30,473 nt of DNA from a virus (taxonomy: Duplodnaviria; Caudoviricetes): IMG/VR virus record IMGVR_UViG_3300012942_000105, positions 1 to 30,473 of that record; one strand, given 5' to 3'. Both the position numbers and the translations under genes were made by a program. The notes beneath the pieces are model-generated. The model worked only from the letters and a program-made list of their open reading frames with translations. It did not search any database and had not been told where the DNA came from. Positions within the stretch are counted from its first letter, which is position 1, and each line of letters begins with the position of its first letter. This document shows, piece by piece, positions 3,737 to 21,854 of the stretch.

Positions 3737-5614
3737 TCATTTCTGATCCCCTGCTTTCATAGCCTTACCAGTAGCAAATGGAATGACCTGTGCTGGATTG
3801 ATAGGCGAACCACCCTGTCGCACCTCGAAATGTAGGTGAGGCCCAGTTACTCTGCCAGTCGCTCCAACCTTACCAATCTGCTGCATTTGTGTTACCGTCT
3901 GGCCCTTCTTTACCAAGATAGCGCTCTGGTGAGCATAAAGAGTTGACATGCCGTTGCCATGATCAACGATCGTACAATTACCATAACCACCCTTAGTTCC
4001 AGCGAAAGTTACTGTGCCTGCTTTTGAAGCATAGATCGGAGTGCCTACTGGTGTGCTGCGGATATCAACGCCAGTATGCATCTTCTTCACCTTGAGCACT
4101 GGATGGATACGATATCCAAAGGGTGAACCACCCACACCGCTGACGGGGCAACAGAATTTGGTTCCATCATCCGGAATGACTGCTGGCTGAGTATCATCCA
4201 CCTCACCACCCTGGCCTTCCTCTTCAACGCTATCCGTGCCTTCTCCTCCACTACTGGAACTCGAATCAGAGCTGCTAGCCATACTGGCTGCTGGGCTTTT
4301 GGTGCCAGGATGACCATTATAAGGCTCGTGCGTTGGCATCCTGGAACAAATACTCATCGTGCTGCTATCTGGATAGCCAGCACTTGGATCGAGGTCTCGA
4401 TCAGCTAGGCGTGTTGGTTTCGGGCCTTGTGCTTCGGCTGCCTTAGTTGCCGTGGGGCCATTACCACCATTTTGTTGAATCTGAGCACCTTTGAGGAATA
4501 GGTTGCCGCCTGCGGTGATACCACATACACCGCCTGACTCCAAGGCAATCGTTCCACCGGCTTTGGTGCTCATGTTGCCACTTGATGTGATGTTTGCGGC
4601 GCCCTTACTCAAAAGGTTCATATCACCGGCAGCACTGATATTGCAGGCCGCCCCAGTAAGAACCTCTAGATTCTTACCAAATTGCATTGACCCACCACCA
4701 GCACCATAGGCATTCCATGATTTGATGGCATTCATATTGATCTGACCATCTGCATGTAGATTCAGATCGCCCTGGCTCCTCAGGCTGATACTCTTGGCGG
4801 AATAGGCATCAATACCATCATCACTAACCTCGAGCCAGCTATTGCCGTTACCAGATATGAAATACACATACCCCGTGGCATCATTGATATAGACCTGCGC
4901 ACCAGTCTTGGTGCGAATGCGAATCGACGAATCGTTACCGTCATCAAAGACCAGCTGATGACCACCAGGGCTCTTAAAGCCATAGACATTGCTGATCTCA
5001 TCACGGCGTGCACCAGCATCTGTTGGGCCTCTACTGGTATCCTCGTAAAGGCCTTGCGCTTGTAAACCATCATGAAGTGGATCAAAGCGAGCTCTTGTGT
5101 GGTTATCCGAATTTGGTACGTTTGGGTCCCAGCGGTTGTATTCTGCTACTGGTGGATTGGCACCATCCACGCCAGGATCGTAGGAATTGTTGGTTGGAAT
5201 ACCTGGAACCATGTGGTTCATAAAGCTCTGGTAGAGCCCGCCAATGTAGATTCCACGGTTAGGGTCACCATTGATAAACATGACCACAACCTCGTTCTCA
5301 AGGTCGGGTGGCACGGCCCACCAACCATATGATTGCTGAGTATCGGCGAGCTTCTTACCCTGCTTGGTGTTACTTTTCGGATTAGTCGCGCCAGCGAATG
5401 GTGAGCAATATTGAACGGTGAGCCATGACAACTCATCATCTGGATTTGAACTCAATTCAGGAATCCAGACTTGGAGGCGACCTAGTTTGAAGGCATCCTG
5501 GTTGTTCTTGACGTAACCAATGTAAGCCTGGTTGAGGAGGTTGATGCGGCCACCTGGATCCTGTTGATATCCACGTGGAGTTCTAAATGAACGACCAAAG
5601 CTACGACTAGACAT
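3737..5614 (-). CDS. gp5: Baseplate central spike, gp5-like, with C-terminal M23 peptidase
   Basis: N-terminal gp5 OB-fold motifs (KLGRLQVWIPEL, SYGWWAVPPDLENEVVVMF), Gly/Ser/Asn beta-helix repeats and a PTHEPY motif. These are followed by M23 zinc motifs HTGVD, YAH and TGPHLHFEVR. Confidence 0.85.
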   Translation of the reverse strand: MSSRSFGRSFRTPRGYQQDPGGRINLLNQAYIGYVKNNQDAFKLGRLQVWIPELSSNPDDELSWLTVQYCSPFAGATNPKSNTKQGKKLADTQQSYGWWAVPPDLENEVVVMFINGDPNRGIYIGGLYQSFMNHMVPGIPTNNSYDPGVDGANPPVAEYNRWDPNVPNSDNHTRARFDPLHDGLQAQGLYEDTSRGPTDAGARRDEISNVYGFKSPGGHQLVFDDGNDSSIRIRTKTGAQVYINDATGYVYFISGNGNSWLEVSDDGIDAYSAKSISLRSQGDLNLHADGQINMNAIKSWNAYGAGGGSMQFGKNLEVLTGAACNISAAGDMNLLSKGAANITSSGNMSTKAGGTIALESGGVCGITAGGNLFLKGAQIQQNGGNGPTATKAAEAQGPKPTRLADRDLDPSAGYPDSSTMSICSRMPTHEPYNGHPGTKSPAASMASSSDSSSSSGGEGTDSVEEEGQGGEVDDTQPAVIPDDGTKFCCPVSGVGGSPFGYRIHPVLKVKKMHTGVDIRSTPVGTPIYASKAGTVTFAGTKGGYGNCTIVDHGNGMSTLYAHQSAILVKKGQTVTQMQQIGKVGATGRVTGPHLHFEVRQGGSPINPAQVIPFATGKAMKAGDQK

Positions 5615-12946: not shown

Positions 12947-14727
12947 TAAAGATCCGCACAGTAACGATGAAGAACTTCCTTAGTGTTGGTAACACCACAC
13001 AGGCGGTTCAACTAGATGAGCATGGATTGACTCTAATCCTTGGTGAGAATGTCGATCAGGGTAGTGGTGGTTCGAGGAACGGGGTCGGTAAAACCACGCT
13101 AGCTCAGGCCATTTGTTATGCGCTCTACGGAGAGGCGTTGACCCAGATCCGTAAGGATAACCTAATCAACAAGATCAACCAGAAGCAGATGAGCGTTTCA
13201 CTGGATTTTGATATTGGTAACAAGAGCTACCGTATTGAGCGAGGCCGCAAACCCAATTTCCTCCGCTACTATGTCAATGATGGTCTGGTTACTCAGGATG
13301 GTGATAATGAAGCTCATGGTGAAAGCAAGATCACCCAGCAGGAGATTGAGAAGACCATCGGTTGTTCACATACACTCTTCAAGCACATCGTAGCCCTTCA
13401 TAGTAAGACCACACCATTCTTGGAAATGAATGCCAAGGATCAACGGGTAGTCATTGAAGAGCTACTGGGTATCACCCAGTTGAGTAGCAAGGCAGAGCAG
13501 CTCAAAGCCCTGATCAAAGAGATCAAGGACGAGATCAAAGGCGAGGAACTGAGGATTAAGATCCTCATTGATAACAATGATCGTATCCAGAAGACGATCA
13601 ATGACCTGAAGTTCAAAGGCACTGTTTGGGATAAGGAACATAGCAAGAAACTGGATAAACTCCAGACTGCGATTGATCAGCTCAAAGAAATCGACATTGA
13701 AACCGAAATCAACAACCAGCGCCTCCTCGTTGAGTTCAATCGTGTTTCGCAAGAAGTGATGCGATTTGAACGTGATGCCGGTCGTGTTGAAAAAGCCTAC
13801 AATGCAGCTGACTCTTCCATCCAACGCCTCGATTTACAGATGGAAGCTGCCAAGGAGAAGAAGTGCCACACCTGTGGCCAAGACGTTCATGACGATAAGC
13901 ACCAGGAGATCCTAGCTGATCTAGTGGCTCACCGTAAGCAATATGAAGAAGAGCGTAGCCAGATCCAAGAAGAGCTCTTTGCAGTGGCTGGTGATCTCGA
14001 GAAAGCTCTTGGAGAGCTCTCGGGTCTTGGTAATATGCCAGAAGTCTCCTACCCCAATATTGAGCAGGCAATGAATCATCGTCATACTCTCGACAAATTG
14101 GAAGCTGATCAACAGCGTGAGACGGCTCAGGATAATCCTTACATTGATCAGATTGCCAACCTGAGCACCAGTGGGTTACAGGATATCTCCTATGATTATT
14201 TGAATGAATTGGTTAGGCTGAAAGAGCACCAGGATTTCTTACTCAAGCTGCTGACCGATAAATCATCATTCATCCGCAAGAAGATCATCGACCAGAACCT
14301 CAGTTACTTGAATGTGAGGTTGAACTCCTATCTGGATAAGATCCAGTTACCACATGAGGTAGTCTTCCAGAGCGATCTAACCGTAGAGATCACCCGACTG
14401 GGTAGAGAGTATGATTTCGCCCAGTTGAGCAACGGTGAACAAAATCGAGTCGTGTTGGCGCTCGCATGGGCCTTCCGTGATGTCTGGGAGACCATGAATA
14501 AGCCAATGAACCTCATCCTGATTGATGAGTTGGTTGATGCTGGTATGGATAGTAAGGGTATGGATCTTGCCCTCGAGATCCTGAAGAAGAATGCGCGTGA
14601 TAGAGGCAAAAACATCTTCCTCATTAGCCACAAAGATGAATTGACATCCAGGGTTCCGAGGGTGCTACTCGTTCAATACGAGAATAACTTCACTACCTAT
14701 ATCACGGATACTGAGCAGAATGACTGA
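12943..14727 (+). CDS. gp46: Recombination ATPase subunit (Rad50/SbcC-like)
   Basis: Walker A NGVGKTT, coiled coil with CHTC zinc hook, LSNGEQ signature, LILIDE Walker B and ISH H-loop. Confidence 0.93.
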
Positions 14728-15604
14728 GATCCTCTATAGCAATGAGGACGCCAGCGTAAACTTTGTAACGCCCCATCCACAAGGTGGGGCGTTCGAGTCA
14801 CGGTATGTCAGGCGCACCCCTGAGTATTTCATCACCTATCTGAGCAGCCACTCTGGTTGTAATAAGGCATGTCGCTTCTGTCATTTGACCCAAACTGGTC
14901 AGACCATGATGGCACCAGCTAGTGTGAAAGACTATGAGCAGCAAGCCCTGGATGTCTTCCGTCATTACCGACAGTTCGATGATGCCCTGAGAGTCAATTT
15001 CAACTTCATGGCACGTGGAGAGCCCTTGGCTAACCCCAATGTACTCACCAGCTGGAATGACGTTCAGAGACCCTTACAGAGCCTAGCAGAACAACATGCC
15101 TTGGTAGGCAAGTACAACATCAGTACGATCATGCCCTCAGAGATGGCAGACCGTAGCCTCTACGATGTCTTTGGTCAATCGGGCGCACAGATCTACTATT
15201 CACTCTACAGCCTCAAACCAGAGTTTAGGAAACGGTGGCTACCTAGGGCCATGGATCCTCATAAGGCTCTCTGGAAGTTGACTGAATGGCAGCAAAAGAC
15301 TGGAGAACTCGTAACCCTCCATTGGGCCTTCATCGAAGGTGAGAATGATGATCTCGAAACACTCGAGAAAATCGTTATGGCCATCCTGTTTCGAGGCCTC
15401 AAGGTGAAGTTCAATCTGGTTCGCTACAATCCATACAGCGAGGCCCAAGGTAGAGAACCGGCCGACGACATCATCCAACGCAACTTCGACTATTTGGCCC
15501 AGGCCTTTGGTAACGAGAAGTCTCGGATAGTGCCTCGAGTTGGCTTTGATGTCAAAGCCTCATGCGGAATGTTTGTCGATGCTACCCACAAGCCTATGCG
15601 CTGA
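14720..15604 (+). CDS. RlmN/Cfr-like radical SAM enzyme
   Basis: [13 protein letters not shown] cluster motif, MARGEP (cf. MGMGEP), NDD, NLVRYNP and C-terminal ASCG (cf. AACGQ). Confidence 0.85.
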
Positions 15605-17026: not shown

Positions 17027-17566
17027 TCAATCTTCCGCTCCACCTAGACGGCGAATTGCGCCTTTATTCTGCTTGAAGAACCCCTCATGAGTCACAATCA
17101 CGTAATCACATGCCTCTGGTGTTCCAAATGACTTGCGATACGTCACATAGGATAGACCAGTAAGATCCAACTCAGACAGGTATTTGGCTTTGAAAGCGGC
17201 CCAGGATCCTTTGCGGGTGATCTTGAAGATGGTAAGCGAGAAATCCTGGTCATCCGCAGGTTCTTCTGTCTGATCAATCCAGGTATCGAGTTGCTTACAA
17301 GATCCGTCAATGATCTGATGAAACGCGATGTCAGCGTAATTCTTGGCCTCAAGATTCAGATAGGGTAGATCGTCTGGAGGAATGATATCACCCTTGGCCG
17401 CTCTCTGCTGACCGCTACTAAGGAACTCCTTACGGAAGACGTTTTTGCCGCCCATGTAGGCTCCTGAGTTAGGAACTCGTTGGAAGTTACCTCCTAGAGT
17501 CTCACCCAAGAAAACGCAGATCTCGCGTTCCCATGAATTGCCCTTCAATTTTGATTTGCTAGTCAT
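17027..17566 (-). CDS. Holliday junction resolvase, PD-(D/E)xK (Hjc-like)
   Basis: SKLKGNSWERE, RVPNSGA, GDIIPP and LEAKNY motifs. Start overlaps the HNH stop (TGATG). Confidence 0.8.
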   Translation of the reverse strand: MTSKSKLKGNSWEREICVFLGETLGGNFQRVPNSGAYMGGKNVFRKEFLSSGQQRAAKGDIIPPDDLPYLNLEAKNYADIAFHQIIDGSCKQLDTWIDQTEEPADDQDFSLTIFKITRKGSWAAFKAKYLSELDLTGLSYVTYRKSFGTPEACDYVIVTHEGFFKQNKGAIRRLGGAED

Positions 17567-18030
17567 CAGATATGACTCCACGATTTTCGATTTACCACAC
17601 ACCTGATAGTTTCTTCAGAAACGCCATAATCAGGAGCCAGTTCTGCTTGGGTATAATAATCAGTGGCATATCGAGACCTAATATCATGAACCTGAGCTTC
17701 AGTTAGCTTCGTGTGCTGTCGCCCTTTTAATACTTTATCAGTCATATTGATTTGGTTAGATCCTAAGAAAAGGTGGTCAGGGTTGATACAGGTTGGATTG
17801 TCACAGGAATGGCAGACATGATCATCAGATCCTATTGGGCCATTATGACAAATATAACTGAGTTGGTGAGTTCCACTTTTACCGTGAACTCTATACCAAC
17901 GATCAACATGGCGACCATATCCATCCTTATCCGTATAACCTGTCCAATTCCAACAACCGTTAGATTGGATAGAAGTTCGAGCGGCCAGATATTCCTTCAG
18001 AGTTCTGGTGTGTTTATGTCCAGATGTCAT
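17566..18030 (-). CDS. Free-standing HNH endonuclease with C-terminal HTH
   Basis: CWNWTG..DGYG, VCHSCDNPTCINPDHLFLGS..NM.D, then KLTEAQV..IR..TQAELA..YGVS..TI. Confidence 0.9.
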   Translation of the reverse strand: MTSGHKHTRTLKEYLAARTSIQSNGCWNWTGYTDKDGYGRHVDRWYRVHGKSGTHQLSYICHNGPIGSDDHVCHSCDNPTCINPDHLFLGSNQINMTDKVLKGRQHTKLTEAQVHDIRSRYATDYYTQAELAPDYGVSEETIRCVVNRKSWSHI

Positions 18031-18057
18031 TGCTACCCTCAAGTTGGATTATGTGGG

Positions 18058-18063: not shown

Positions 18064-18124
18064 TCTACACCAATATAGACTCCAGGGTTGGTTGTATCGC
18101 ATTGTGCTTATAAAGGAGCACAAC

Positions 18125-18949
18125 ATGGATAAGCGAAATCGTGATCTGACTGTGATGGTGAATGTCTCACCAACCGACAAAGTGCGTTTTCGAGAGTTCA
18201 TGAAACAAGAGCTTGGTTACTACAACGCTCTTGTTGAAGGTCTAGGACCGCGTGCCCGAACTTTCCCCGAGACCCTTATAGCCCTCCACAAGGATTGGCA
18301 GAACCTTTGGTCAGCTTTGGCACAGGGTGGTCACAATCTAAAGCTCTATGAAAAGGCTCCAATGGATATCCAGCTGCCAGCTGATCTGGAGCCGCATCGT
18401 AAGATGCTTGTTGGTCGAGATTCCAAGGGTGAACGATTCCTGAATGATCGCATGTTCAACATCATGAGTATAGCGACCACTCCAGCTTTGATTCATCCTA
18501 TTGTGCGACGGAACATGGCCAACTTGGTTCTTGAATTCTTCAAAGACCAATCCATCAAACTAGCCAATCGCAATGAGAATGCCCTGGGTGAGCAGGATAT
18601 GTATTCCAAGCCTATTGATCTCCTGGTTAAGCATGACCTGGTGACTAAGCGCCACCTACAGATTCCTCGTAACGCGCTTAATGCGGTCTATTACTATGAT
18701 GATCGCGAACTCACGGAGATCTACACTCCTTACAGTGATAACCCTTTGGTGGTTCAGGGCCATGATCTCGAGCACAACAATCACTGGAATCTGATCATCC
18801 TACATCAACAGGCTGGTATGGAAGCTGACCCCACGACCCCTTGGGTTATTGACATCACGTATAACCAGAACCCATACTTACTCCGTTACCAGGATGTTGA
18901 TCAACCAAAGACTGGTAGGATTTTCGCGGCGATGAAGAGCCGTAACTAA
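18125..18949 (+). CDS. Hypothetical protein resembling the TnpB N-terminal (WED/REC) half, with no RuvC domain
   Basis: AAGGAG RBS and ATG at 18125; 274 aa. The ORF itself is solid; the TnpB resemblance is a by-eye motif alignment only. Confidence 0.5.
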   Translation: MDKRNRDLTVMVNVSPTDKVRFREFMKQELGYYNALVEGLGPRARTFPETLIALHKDWQNLWSALAQGGHNLKLYEKAPMDIQLPADLEPHRKMLVGRDSKGERFLNDRMFNIMSIATTPALIHPIVRRNMANLVLEFFKDQSIKLANRNENALGEQDMYSKPIDLLVKHDLVTKRHLQIPRNALNAVYYYDDRELTEIYTPYSDNPLVVQGHDLEHNNHWNLIILHQQAGMEADPTTPWVIDITYNQNPYLLRYQDVDQPKTGRIFAAMKSRN

Positions 18950-19023
18950 TAGGGTAGAGTTACCCTAAGATCGATCTCAGATGTAGCTGAATCGCGCTCA
19001 TTCGGTTGAGCGAATCTGTGTAC

Positions 19024-19029
19024 TAAATA
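19024..19029 (+). promoter_or_regulatory. Late promoter (TAAATA) with no downstream ORF; likely drives the ncRNA
   Basis: Same box as before structural genes; the next credible gene is about 890 nt away and has its own box. Confidence 0.55.
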
Positions 19030-19034
19030 ACCCC

Positions 19035-19600
19035 AAAGAGGGACCACCCACAGATTCTACTTTATAGCCCCTAGATATCCCCTGACACCAATAATCATAA
19101 AAAGAAGCCCCAGAGGAACACTAGGTTCCAACTGGGGCCTTACATAGCTTAACATCCTAGAATCTATCGACACCTTGTCCGGAAGAAGACGGAATGGTAG
19201 CCGCTAGGGGCGAACTGGGTCCTACATTAGTAGGTATGGGTATTACCCTACGACACACCAGTATAAACAAAGCCAGTGGGGAAAACGCTGGTGGTGATCC
19301 GAGAAGCAACCTGGGGTGCAAACCGACTTTCCCCTGGGCTCTGGTTCTTCGTAGGAAGTGAGGCCACCGGTGACCCGGAACCTCACAGCCGAGTCTGGGC
19401 TACTTGAAAGGTCTAGGTCTCGGTACCGCCATAACTCAGAGTTCCTATCTGAAAAGCCGACAGGATGACCCCGGCGCTGGTTTACCAGTGATAGTTTCAA
19501 GATCTTGCGACAACCTCTAACTGCAAGGCTGAACTCCCCTCTTGCTGATTCATTTTTGTTTCGGTAAGGGGGGAGTAAAGATCTGTGCTTCCTACCTACT
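19035..19600 (+). ncRNA. Putative large structured non-coding RNA (~560 nt), family unidentified
   Basis: No credible ORF. Many helices: 19067-74/19204-11, 19107-13/19132-38, 19271-84/19328-40, 19351-59/19587-95, 19358-63/19381-86, 19388-93/19419-24, and a 16-bp stem 19533-48/19561-76 with three G-U pairs on the + strand. Confidence 0.65.
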
Positions 19601-19674
19601 GCAAGTCTTACATTCACTCGCAAGCTCGTTCATTCCTCCGCTTCGCTCATCCAGTTATCACCCAGTAATCACCA

Positions 19675-19830
19675 ATTCAAGTGGTCTTTGAATCGAAGAG
19701 TTCATATGGAACTTTCGCAAAGATTCGTGAAGATTTCGCAAAGGATCGCACGGAATTACCGCTCTAAGGATCGCTTCATATCTCAGAGATTCTCACAGAT
19801 CCAATCGCATTGTACGGTTCTCAGAGAACC
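19675..19830. repeat. Cluster of short direct repeats and hairpins
   Basis: TTTCGCAAAG x2 (19713, 19734), AAGGATCGC x2 (19741, 19766), TCTCASAGA x3 (19781, 19791, 19819); hairpins at 19675-19693, 19694-19717 and 19816-19830. Confidence 0.6.
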
Positions 19831-19916: not shown

Positions 19917-20411
19917 ATGCGTCAAAGATTCAATGATCAAAGTGGTGAGTTCGTGGGTTGGAAGTTCAGTCGTACTGAAGCCGCCTATATTTCCTCAAAC
20001 ATCCTGCCATTCCTCAAGGGATCAAATGAGTGGGAATCTAGATTCCTGAGAACCATGGTCGGTGATTTCAACCATGATTTACCCTTCCTATCGATCAAGC
20101 AGAAAGAACGTCTAGACCTCATTCTACGACGTCATGGTATCTCCAATCTTTCTTACCTATGTGATCAGCTTCCTATTGCTCGTTGGAATGGTAATACAGA
20201 TTCACTGATCAACTTCATTAAAGAGATCATGCCCCTGATGGAATGCGAATTCATCTGGTTCTATGAATACAGCCCAGCAGCATTCGCCTATGATAGAACT
20301 CCTCTTGAGATTGCTACCGAGGATCATGACCTATATTTTGGCTTCGTGAGTGAACTTGATGCTGAGATGGTGGTTGCGGAGATAACTCATAGGGTACAAG
20401 CTACCGTCTGA
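19917..20411 (+). CDS. Hypothetical protein
   Basis: 164-aa ORF coupled (TGATG) to RNase H. Confidence 0.7.
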   Translation: MRQRFNDQSGEFVGWKFSRTEAAYISSNILPFLKGSNEWESRFLRTMVGDFNHDLPFLSIKQKERLDLILRRHGISNLSYLCDQLPIARWNGNTDSLINFIKEIMPLMECEFIWFYEYSPAAFAYDRTPLEIATEDHDLYFGFVSELDAEMVVAEITHRVQATV

Positions 20412-20791
20412 TGGAGATCTACTTTGATGGAGGATGCGCTCCTAATCCAGGCAAGATGAGCGCATGTATCGTGATATGTCAGCCAGGTCGTAAAGCCCGT
20501 GCCTTCACGATAAAGGATCTAGGTCAGGGTACCAACAATATAGCCGAGTGGTCAGCTCTTATCTGGGCCATCCTTTGGGCCAAAGATAATTCGGTTGAGC
20601 AATGTGTCGTTATCGGTGACAGCAAGTTGGTCATTAACCAGGCCAGGGGTATGTGGAAGGTCAATAACAAGGTGTTGGCCGATTTGCTCAAAGAGTTCCA
20701 TGAGATCTCTAAGGGTCTTGATCTTGAGTTTCGCCACGTTCTCCGCGATTCCAATCTAGCCGGCATCTACCTAGAGCACGGCACGCTCTAG
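20411..20791 (+). CDS. rnhA: Ribonuclease HI-like protein
   Basis: YFDGGC.PNPG, TNNIAEW.AL, GDSKLVINQ..G.WKV and HV.R..N motifs. Confidence 0.88.
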   Translation: MEIYFDGGCAPNPGKMSACIVICQPGRKARAFTIKDLGQGTNNIAEWSALIWAILWAKDNSVEQCVVIGDSKLVINQARGMWKVNNKVLADLLKEFHEISKGLDLEFRHVLRDSNLAGIYLEHGTL

Positions 20792-21024
20792 TGCATCATC
20801 ACACCAGTCTTATTGGTGCGCTCGATATTTTCCTCAATCAGTTCCAAAGCGTATTTGCGTTGTCTTGGTGTCATAGCAAAGGCCTGATCCAATGGTGCGC
20901 CCCCACGCATGTAGAAGCTGATCTGGATGAGTTGTTTCTCTAAGGCTCTTGCGTCTTCGATATACGACTGAAGAAACACAGGAATGTCTTCAGCCGATAG
21001 ACCCAAGAGCCTTATGCGAAAAAA
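20788..21024 (-). CDS. gp51-like baseplate hub assembly protein; possibly expressed by -1 frameshift from the upstream ORF
   Basis: ISFYMRGG..LDQAFAMTPRQR...ELIEENIE. No strong independent start/RBS; overlaps the end of the gp26-like gene in the -1 frame. Boundary is set at the slippery site. Confidence 0.6.
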   Translation of the reverse strand, partial: FFRIRLLGLSAEDIPVFLQSYIEDARALEKQLIQISFYMRGGAPLDQAFAMTPRQRKYALELIEENIERTNKTGVMMH

Positions 21025-21854
21025 CGCGAAGCGTCGAAGATCATACCGGCGGTCCATTTGTGCTTACACTCTTCCTTGGGGCATTCCACCTCAAGTGTCT
21101 TAGGAATACCCGACTCACTAAGGCTCTTCAGCTTATCGGTGATCTTCTGGATAGTCGCCCTATCGGTATTCTGAATGAACTCACTGATAAACTGCTGATC
21201 AGTGACTTTGTTTTCAGGGATGGTGATCGATTTGACACAATGGCTCAGTAGATCCAGATTCAGTTCAGCCATACGTTCAAAAGCTGAATTGAACTTTGAC
21301 TGTCTCTCATCCTCTGTCAGCTCTGTATCTGTCAAATATTGGAGGGCTTTAGTCTCCTGGAAGGTCTTGATATCCAGGATGGTCTTGCTCTCGAAGTCAT
21401 AGGGTTTGAGATTGATAACCATAGTGTCATTGACTCTCAGAACCGTATCCTCGTCTTTCACTGGAGCGATAGCACTCAAGAGACCTCTGATACTCGTTTC
21501 AGTCGAGAACTCGTTTTCACATTCTGGGCAAGTGACATTGACCTCCAAGTTATCACCATAGCTGGCTAGTTTAATCGCTAGAAGGAGCACATCCATATCA
21601 GGAACGCTAATATGACGGGGGTTCTTGATAGCCGGAACGCATGATTTGAAAAGACGTTCTAGAGCCTCTCCATTCAGGAGGGCATCTGGGTTCTTGAGGA
21701 TGATTTCATCGCTAGCAGTCATGGGAAGGATCGCAACCTCTCCATTCAGCGCAAGGTCAATTTCACCTTCTTCGAAGAACTGGCCACTAGTAGGCAAAGC
21801 CTGATGAACTGTAGCAGCCCGGCAATATCGGGCGAGTGGATTGGTGGTATCCAT
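21012..21854 (-). CDS. Baseplate hub assembly protein, gp26-like
   Basis: NPL..Y.R, LPTSG, PMTASDEI.LKNPDALLNG, D.DVLLLAIK.ASYG, and CPEC / CPKEEC zinc motifs. AGGAG RBS before ATG 21854. Confidence 0.8.
   Translation of the reverse strand: MDTTNPLARYCRAATVHQALPTSGQFFEEGEIDLALNGEVAILPMTASDEIILKNPDALLNGEALERLFKSCVPAIKNPRHISVPDMDVLLLAIKLASYGDNLEVNVTCPECENEFSTETSIRGLLSAIAPVKDEDTVLRVNDTMVINLKPYDFESKTILDIKTFQETKALQYLTDTELTEDERQSKFNSAFERMAELNLDLLSHCVKSITIPENKVTDQQFISEFIQNTDRATIQKITDKLKSLSESGIPKTLEVECPKEECKHKWTAGMIFDASRFFA

Follow-up and report, generated by a model that had tools for sequence, protein, structure and literature searches.

A RuvC-less jumbo-phage protein with a predicted TnpB/Cas12f-type WED and REC fold, and the conserved leader behind its gene

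What use could a phage have for the recognition half of a TnpB-like nuclease when the cutting half is gone? This question is raised by a gene in the 30,473-nucleotide stretch of viral DNA analysed here in full (IMG/VR record IMGVR_UViG_3300012942_000105; hereafter the window), whose product had been described, from its letters alone, as tracking the WED/REC layout of TnpB and stopping where RuvC should begin. The window belongs to a T4-like jumbo phage, as a portal, a baseplate hub, a gp5-like protein, a late sigma factor, a resolvase and an RNase H were identified in it, and the contigs of its close relatives measure 416-465 kb. Judged by the late sigma factor, the nearest cultured phage is Sinorhizobium phage Phosso (55%), followed by the PA5oct-like and Atu_ph07 phages. 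The gp5-like baseplate protein (3737-5614) carries a C-terminal M23 peptidase (E 1.6e-34).

The open reading frame starts with ATG, preceded by AAAGGAG at 18112-18118, and encodes 274 residues. Homologs are plentiful: 40 at E<=0.001 (264-297 aa) among 218 candidates, in a family of at least 198 representative sequence clusters. The alignment used here (A3, 149 rows) draws on the 150 clusters listed, minus eight outside 225-350 aa and one further fragment, with seven homologs from the first search added. Four diverged family pairs have pN of 0.12-0.19 against pS of 0.67-0.74, and two near-identical pairs have pN = 0; the family gene is real, conserved and under purifying selection. The near-invariant positions are E29, N34, K175, H177, Q179, W240 and Y251, and two motifs, ExxYYN and KRHxQ, are near-invariant across 143 sequences, in which K175, R176, H177 and Q179 are kept in 95, 88, 94 and 99%, respectively. 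Family proteins are basic overall, that of the window being neutral (pI 7.2). A Pfam search of the 274-aa protein gave no match. A probable family member in UniProt, BFVD A0A345MN37 (280 aa, TM 0.76, 25% identity), may come from a cultured phage.

Is the resemblance to TnpB real? The five peptide segments quoted in the preliminary description are all present and in the right order, and its caution that the likeness is weak was justified, as the sequences by themselves are no more alike than chance would give: hhalign of the 149-member alignment against 65 TnpB proteins gave a probability of 0.2% (E 0.31), no better than eight block-shuffled controls, although it nonetheless paired the expected first strand and the YN helix. 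The predicted structure, in contrast, supports the proposed layout. The model shows a WED barrel with a helical REC between strands 1 and 2, and the top 30 rows of a structural comparison all belong to the TnpB/Cas12 superfamily; they span almost the entire model and share its insertion topology and end point. Residues 2-247 of the model cover TnpB 1-174, at 5-12% identity across the rows and an rmsd of 3.6-4.6 in the best ten. Foldseek also ranks this superfamily first, with TM-scores of 0.3-0.4, as does another search (Fanzor1, E 0.0023 over 88 positions). Of the matches that the preliminary description had looked to, none appeared in Pfam, comparison of profiles gave the chance-level hhalign result beside the Fanzor1 match, and the structural WED+REC match did appear, with no unrelated family among the top 30. 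TnpB (ISDra2, 8H1J; ISFba1, 8IAZ), Cas12f (8DZJ, 7C7L, 9NZP) and Fanzor2 (9B0L) likewise place REC after WED strand 1, the interval between strands 1 and 2 (REC plus linker) being ~160 residues in the phage protein against ~104. The KRHxQ strand would correspond to the TnpB strand with Q121/T123/N124, a match of topology rather than of superposed residues. On the strength of the model, we consider the WED+REC fold, and descent from a TnpB/Cas12f-type nuclease, to be highly probable.

Unlike TnpB, Cas12f and Fanzor2, the phage protein has no RuvC, bridge or zinc finger. The motif G[IVL]D[LIVPR]G occurs in none of the 149 aligned members and CxxC in just two, and the C-terminus lies a median of 23 residues (range 0-64; 149 members) past the last conserved Tyr, so that the missing RuvC-I motif and zinc finger, and the stop where RuvC should begin, hold for the family as they had been read from one sequence. 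The same applies to the claimed lack of tnpA and IS ends, since the genes around it encode an HNH protein, a resolvase, an RNase H and a baseplate hub. A longer, fused form of the family was not found (a weak test), and matches to TnpB or OrfB_IS605 are absent from five phage records with the gene and present in 9 of 14 control genomes. Because RuvC is missing and neither a fused form nor a separate TnpB was found, the protein is neither a TnpB nuclease nor the product of a decaying IS copy. We rejected the first of these identities on the absence of the RuvC D-E-D triad and the C4 zinc finger (TNB), with no separate partner in the five records, and an IS200/IS605 or IS607 element on the shared neighbourhood in 16/16 loci with one copy per genome. 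The phage gene further differs from TnpB systems in being single-copy at a fixed position, with no tnpA, IS ends, CRISPR array or guide found.

Table 1. Features of the locus, in window coordinates.
Feature	Position	Strand	Basis or remark
Holliday-junction resolvase-like gene, constant upstream neighbour	17027..17566	-	PF24608 E 3e-21, phrog_244; 15/16 loci
HNH endonuclease gene between resolvase and WED+REC gene	17566..18042	-	absent in seven closest loci
sigma70-like promoter candidate (-35 18076-18081, -10 18100-18105) and ribosome-binding site	18076..18118	+	by eye
Gene for 274-aa predicted WED+REC-only (RuvC-less) TnpB/Cas12f-fold protein	18125..18949	+	ORF, homologs, alignment, predicted model
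Predicted first WED strand, residues 8-12	18146..18160	+	DSSP on model; TnpB layout
Predicted helical REC insertion, residues 16-147; conserved E29, Y33, N34, Q142	18170..18565	+	model and alignment
Near-invariant K175-R176-H177-x-Q179, entering first WED strand after REC	18647..18661	+	143 sequences and model
Predicted rest of WED barrel, strands 177-245	18653..18859	+	model
Short hairpin directly after stop, without U tract	18950..18967	+	
Conserved folded leader, ~100 nt	18968..19067	+	predicted structure
Leader hairpin H1, sequence-conserved	18968-18994	+	
TAAATA box within leader	19024-19029	+	
Conserved leader segment able to pair with H1 loop, predicted pseudoknot	19057-19062	+	
Hairpin H4, read as intrinsic terminator of minus-strand transcripts	19105..19140	-	T-rich tail
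'Type A' body, large, structured and non-coding, probably late RNA	19150..19640	+	folding and paired changes
RNase H gene, 3' of non-coding gap in close clade	20411..20791	+	
Baseplate hub (gp26-like), constant convergent downstream neighbour	21012..21854	-	

T4-like jumbo phages keep the gene as a single copy, in a stable setting. Across 16 IMG/VR records, several of them near-identical, it lies downstream of gp46 in all 16; in 15 the resolvase adjoins it, and in 15 the hub block comes after it, the contig of the remaining one ending there. Eleven of these loci have a non-coding gap behind the stop; the other five (L010-L012, L142 and L145; three lineages) have a terminator-like hairpin right after the stop and no gap. 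In the cultured phages Phosso, Paride and GAP32 the gap is present at the locus and the WED+REC gene is absent. In the close clade, a radical SAM gene (14720-15604, phrog_27142) keeps a constant place behind gp46. Endonuclease-like ORFs were also seen by eye beside the resolvase in L013, L143 and G006 and, together with the HNH gene of the window, suggest a homing hot spot.

The flanks of the gene are informative as well. Similar promoter boxes at equal spacing were recognised by eye in 7/7 upstream regions compared, which suggests, from sequence, early expression by the host polymerase; a consensus promoter scanner did not list the candidate at 18076-18105. Behind the stop, the folded leader with its possible pseudoknot recurs in 8/8 close loci (the window and seven others), and its hairpins H2 and H3 vary in sequence and keep their pairing. 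The leader motif has seven matches in IMG/VR, all behind a WED+REC gene, and in G002 and G003 the leader profile finds solely the sites behind the gene. The profile finds nothing in Phosso or GAP32, nor behind the distant members L010, L013, L014, L142, L143, L145, G006 and G005 (partial), and Rfam has no match for the leader. Gene and leader are therefore linked within the close clade. Ten of the 12 TAAATA occurrences in the phage lie just upstream of ORF starts, a distribution suggestive of a late promoter, the gene itself having the sigma70-like candidate instead; we take this box to parallel the T4 late promoter. On the minus strand, H4 has its T-rich tail in 8/8 loci compared, weaker in three.

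Farther downstream, the sequence at 18950-19800 folds better than shuffles (z -4.9). In the type A body, 36 of 142 pairs are changed on both sides among five sequences, with 0/500 shuffles as high, a count that leans favourable because the structure was derived from the same five-sequence alignment. Four close loci have a different, EGFOA-like body, here called type B. Two loci, L024 and L026, encode identical proteins and are 98% identical to ~50 nt past the stop, where ~930 nt are exchanged for 1130 nt; moreover, stand-alone type A bodies occur in 4/5 genomes searched. Because the bodies swap beside identical proteins and stand alone elsewhere, the large body constitutes a mobile module in its own right, and the leader alone tracks the gene. 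These data weaken any view in which the protein's partner is the full ~800-nt RNA. Lone type A bodies at G003:C1:224424-224947 and G002:C1:42275-42762 (minus) sit behind promoter-like boxes of their own; such bodies lie near ORFs resembling, by eye, ClpX and IF3, and have no Rfam match. All four type B loci score 34.8-37.5 bits (E 0.003-0.01) against EGFOA (Rfam RF02955), and the Phosso body (L028:9210-9339), which keeps the type B part, scores 29 bits, every score being just below the Rfam cut-off of 37.7 bits. The window, type A body included, has no match to EGFOA or any other Rfam family. EGFOA oligomerises and sits in gene-free regions of unusual size, according to the accessible part of its report (bioRxiv 10.64898/2026.07.01.735769). 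Its ~110-nt motif lies within a conserved type B stretch of ~600 nt (L003, L005, L007, L008 and Phosso), and a far larger jumbo-phage RNA may include EGFOA as one of its domains. This places an orphan motif inside a large, swappable non-coding element of jumbo phages, present in the cultured Phosso.

What, then, does the protein bind? The reading that we rank first, tentatively and at somewhat less than an even chance, has the protein bind nucleic acid without cutting it and, in the close clade, take as RNA partner the ~100-nt leader 3' of its stop, a leader that is likely a remnant or analogue of the TnpB omegaRNA. Early transcription from the host sigma70-like promoter would yield an mRNA with the leader at its 3' end; the WED domain of the phage protein would grip this leader, and the WED/REC cleft, with its near-invariant KRHxQ, would hold a short fixed duplex or a duplex/single-strand junction. 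The likely site of action would be the non-coding locus, where the late-promoter box inside the leader may drive the large RNA. The entire chain, from early expression and leader grip to the fixed duplex and action at the locus, is a shade more tentative still. In TnpB, binding of the TAM duplex falls to the WED/REC cleft, with no other domain involved; Q121 and N156 of WED secure the phosphate where the duplex opens, and the omegaRNA pseudoknot is bound jointly by WED and RuvC. TnpB, Cas12f and Fanzor2 genes also have structured non-coding sequence directly 3', as the phage gene does in the close clade. We favour a binder with a fixed ligand because the TnpB WED/REC binds the TAM duplex, KRHxQ is near-invariant and the family is basic; guide-programmability is no part of this proposal. 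Against leader binding, RuvC makes most of the omegaRNA contacts in TnpB and is now gone, the leader profile is empty behind every distant member examined, and 5/16 loci have the terminator-like hairpin and no gap. Moreover, the leader may be a mere 3' mRNA element, or late-promoter surroundings travelling with the gene, the profile likeness to TnpB is at chance level and the window's own protein is neutral.

Alternatively, the protein may bind DNA independently of RNA, its cleft reading a short TAM-like duplex motif or a fork or junction, to assist transcription or recombination alongside the resolvase and gp46/47, with the leader a mere fellow traveller. The TAM precedent involves WED and REC alone, the two motifs are near-invariant in 143 sequences while downstream DNA is not conserved family-wide, the resolvase adjoins in 15/16 loci and 5/16 loci have no adjacent RNA. 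We nevertheless regard this second-ranked reading as rather unlikely, as the close clade and Phosso have gene and leader together or lack both, H2 and H3 conserve their pairing instead of their sequence, a sign of a single strand, and adjacency to the resolvase may be plain synteny.

It is tempting to speculate that a lineage of jumbo phages domesticated TnpB by deleting its whole nuclease lobe and that the recognition lobe with a remnant omegaRNA forms an RNP serving the swappable ~500-nt RNA module, docking on or opening DNA for a type A or EGFOA-like module, e.g. to set a late promoter or an R-loop primer; we consider this improbable. Marginally less probable, and third among the functions ranked, is a role with the ~500-nt RNA, whether type A or the EGFOA-like type B: the protein could act as its chaperone, join it as a subunit, or load it at a replication origin as an R-loop primer for the neighbouring RNase H to process. 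A large structured body follows the gene wherever the gap is present (11/16 loci), its paired changes exceed those of all 500 shuffles (with the structure taken from the same five sequences), RNase H adjoins in the close clade, and GAP32 has four further partial copies of its gap element around its genome. However, identical proteins accompany either body, bodies exist without the gene and lie 2.3 kb from it in G006, and GC skew follows the coding strand with no clear switch at the gap (four whole genomes, one partial).

More doubtful again is a programmable role on the pattern of TldR or dCas12f, in which the protein, without a nuclease, would repress or activate under the direction of a guide supplied by the sequence that follows the predicted pseudoknot. 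The position and size of the leader, and a pseudoknot followed by a variable stretch, do resemble an omegaRNA, and such exaptations exist, phages included, in the accessible part of PMC12259090. The variable stretch, however, is rich in A and C and looks like the tail of the minus-strand terminator; candidate guides have no own-genome match above 15 nt in G002 and G003, save a self-palindrome and one mismatched match of 18 nt; and RuvC is half of the heteroduplex channel in TnpB. Known cases, as far as the accessible text of PMC12259090 and PMC10691335 goes, keep an inactivated or partly truncated RuvC. TldR and the sigma-E-linked dCas12f (PDB 9N9C) have defined guides, whereas the phage protein misses the whole RuvC lobe and no ECF sigma or flagellin gene adjoins it. 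Membership in TldR/dCas12f was rejected, RuvC being wholly absent and not inactivated or partly truncated. Least probable of all is mere analogy, an OB-like barrel plus helices in a protein of an unrelated phage family, which the low structural identity, rmsd and TM-scores and the missing Pfam and hhalign matches would fit, but which the top 30 rows, solely of the TnpB/Cas12 superfamily with one insertion topology and end point, and two further searches contradict.

Our literature searches found no paper on a WED+REC-only family. A functional parallel is TasA of TIGR-Tas, which likewise binds RNA as a stand-alone domain, has no nuclease and occurs in mobile elements; it differs in its unrelated Nop fold and its repeat arrays, as described in the accessible part of PMC12045711, and the window has no array. 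In the non-cutting derivatives of TnpB/Cas12 known so far, at least a portion of RuvC remains and serves as RNA scaffold, in what is accessible of the sources on them. A ~270-aa family made up of the recognition lobe alone, with purifying selection over at least 198 clusters, would demonstrate that this lobe has a use of its own and would be the smallest Cas12-fold binder found in nature; it would also add an exaptation path whereby a viral core gene arises from a transposon nuclease. If the protein binds the leader as proposed, the RNA-guided scaffold would gain a new use without cutting. If the protein instead served the large RNA in an RNP, this RNP would count as a minimal one of Cas12 fold, and EGFOA would have its first link to a protein.

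Other non-coding elements were observed along the way. The gap element of GAP32 (L031:5398-6201) has its four partial copies near 35.6, 98.9, 261.5-262.1 and 340.8-341.2 kb, roughly evenly spread round the genome; they could be paralogous RNAs or multiple origins. In L274 (G006), ~880 nt of non-coding sequence lie between small genes and the hub block, and other, unrelated-looking stretches occupy the locus at L013:5700-6130, L143:3950-4400 and L009:6030-6560; all four end in a pyrimidine/purine-run hairpin and are possibly more types of large RNA. In the window, short imperfect direct repeats and small hairpins at 19700-19830, before the next gene, are conserved in L002.
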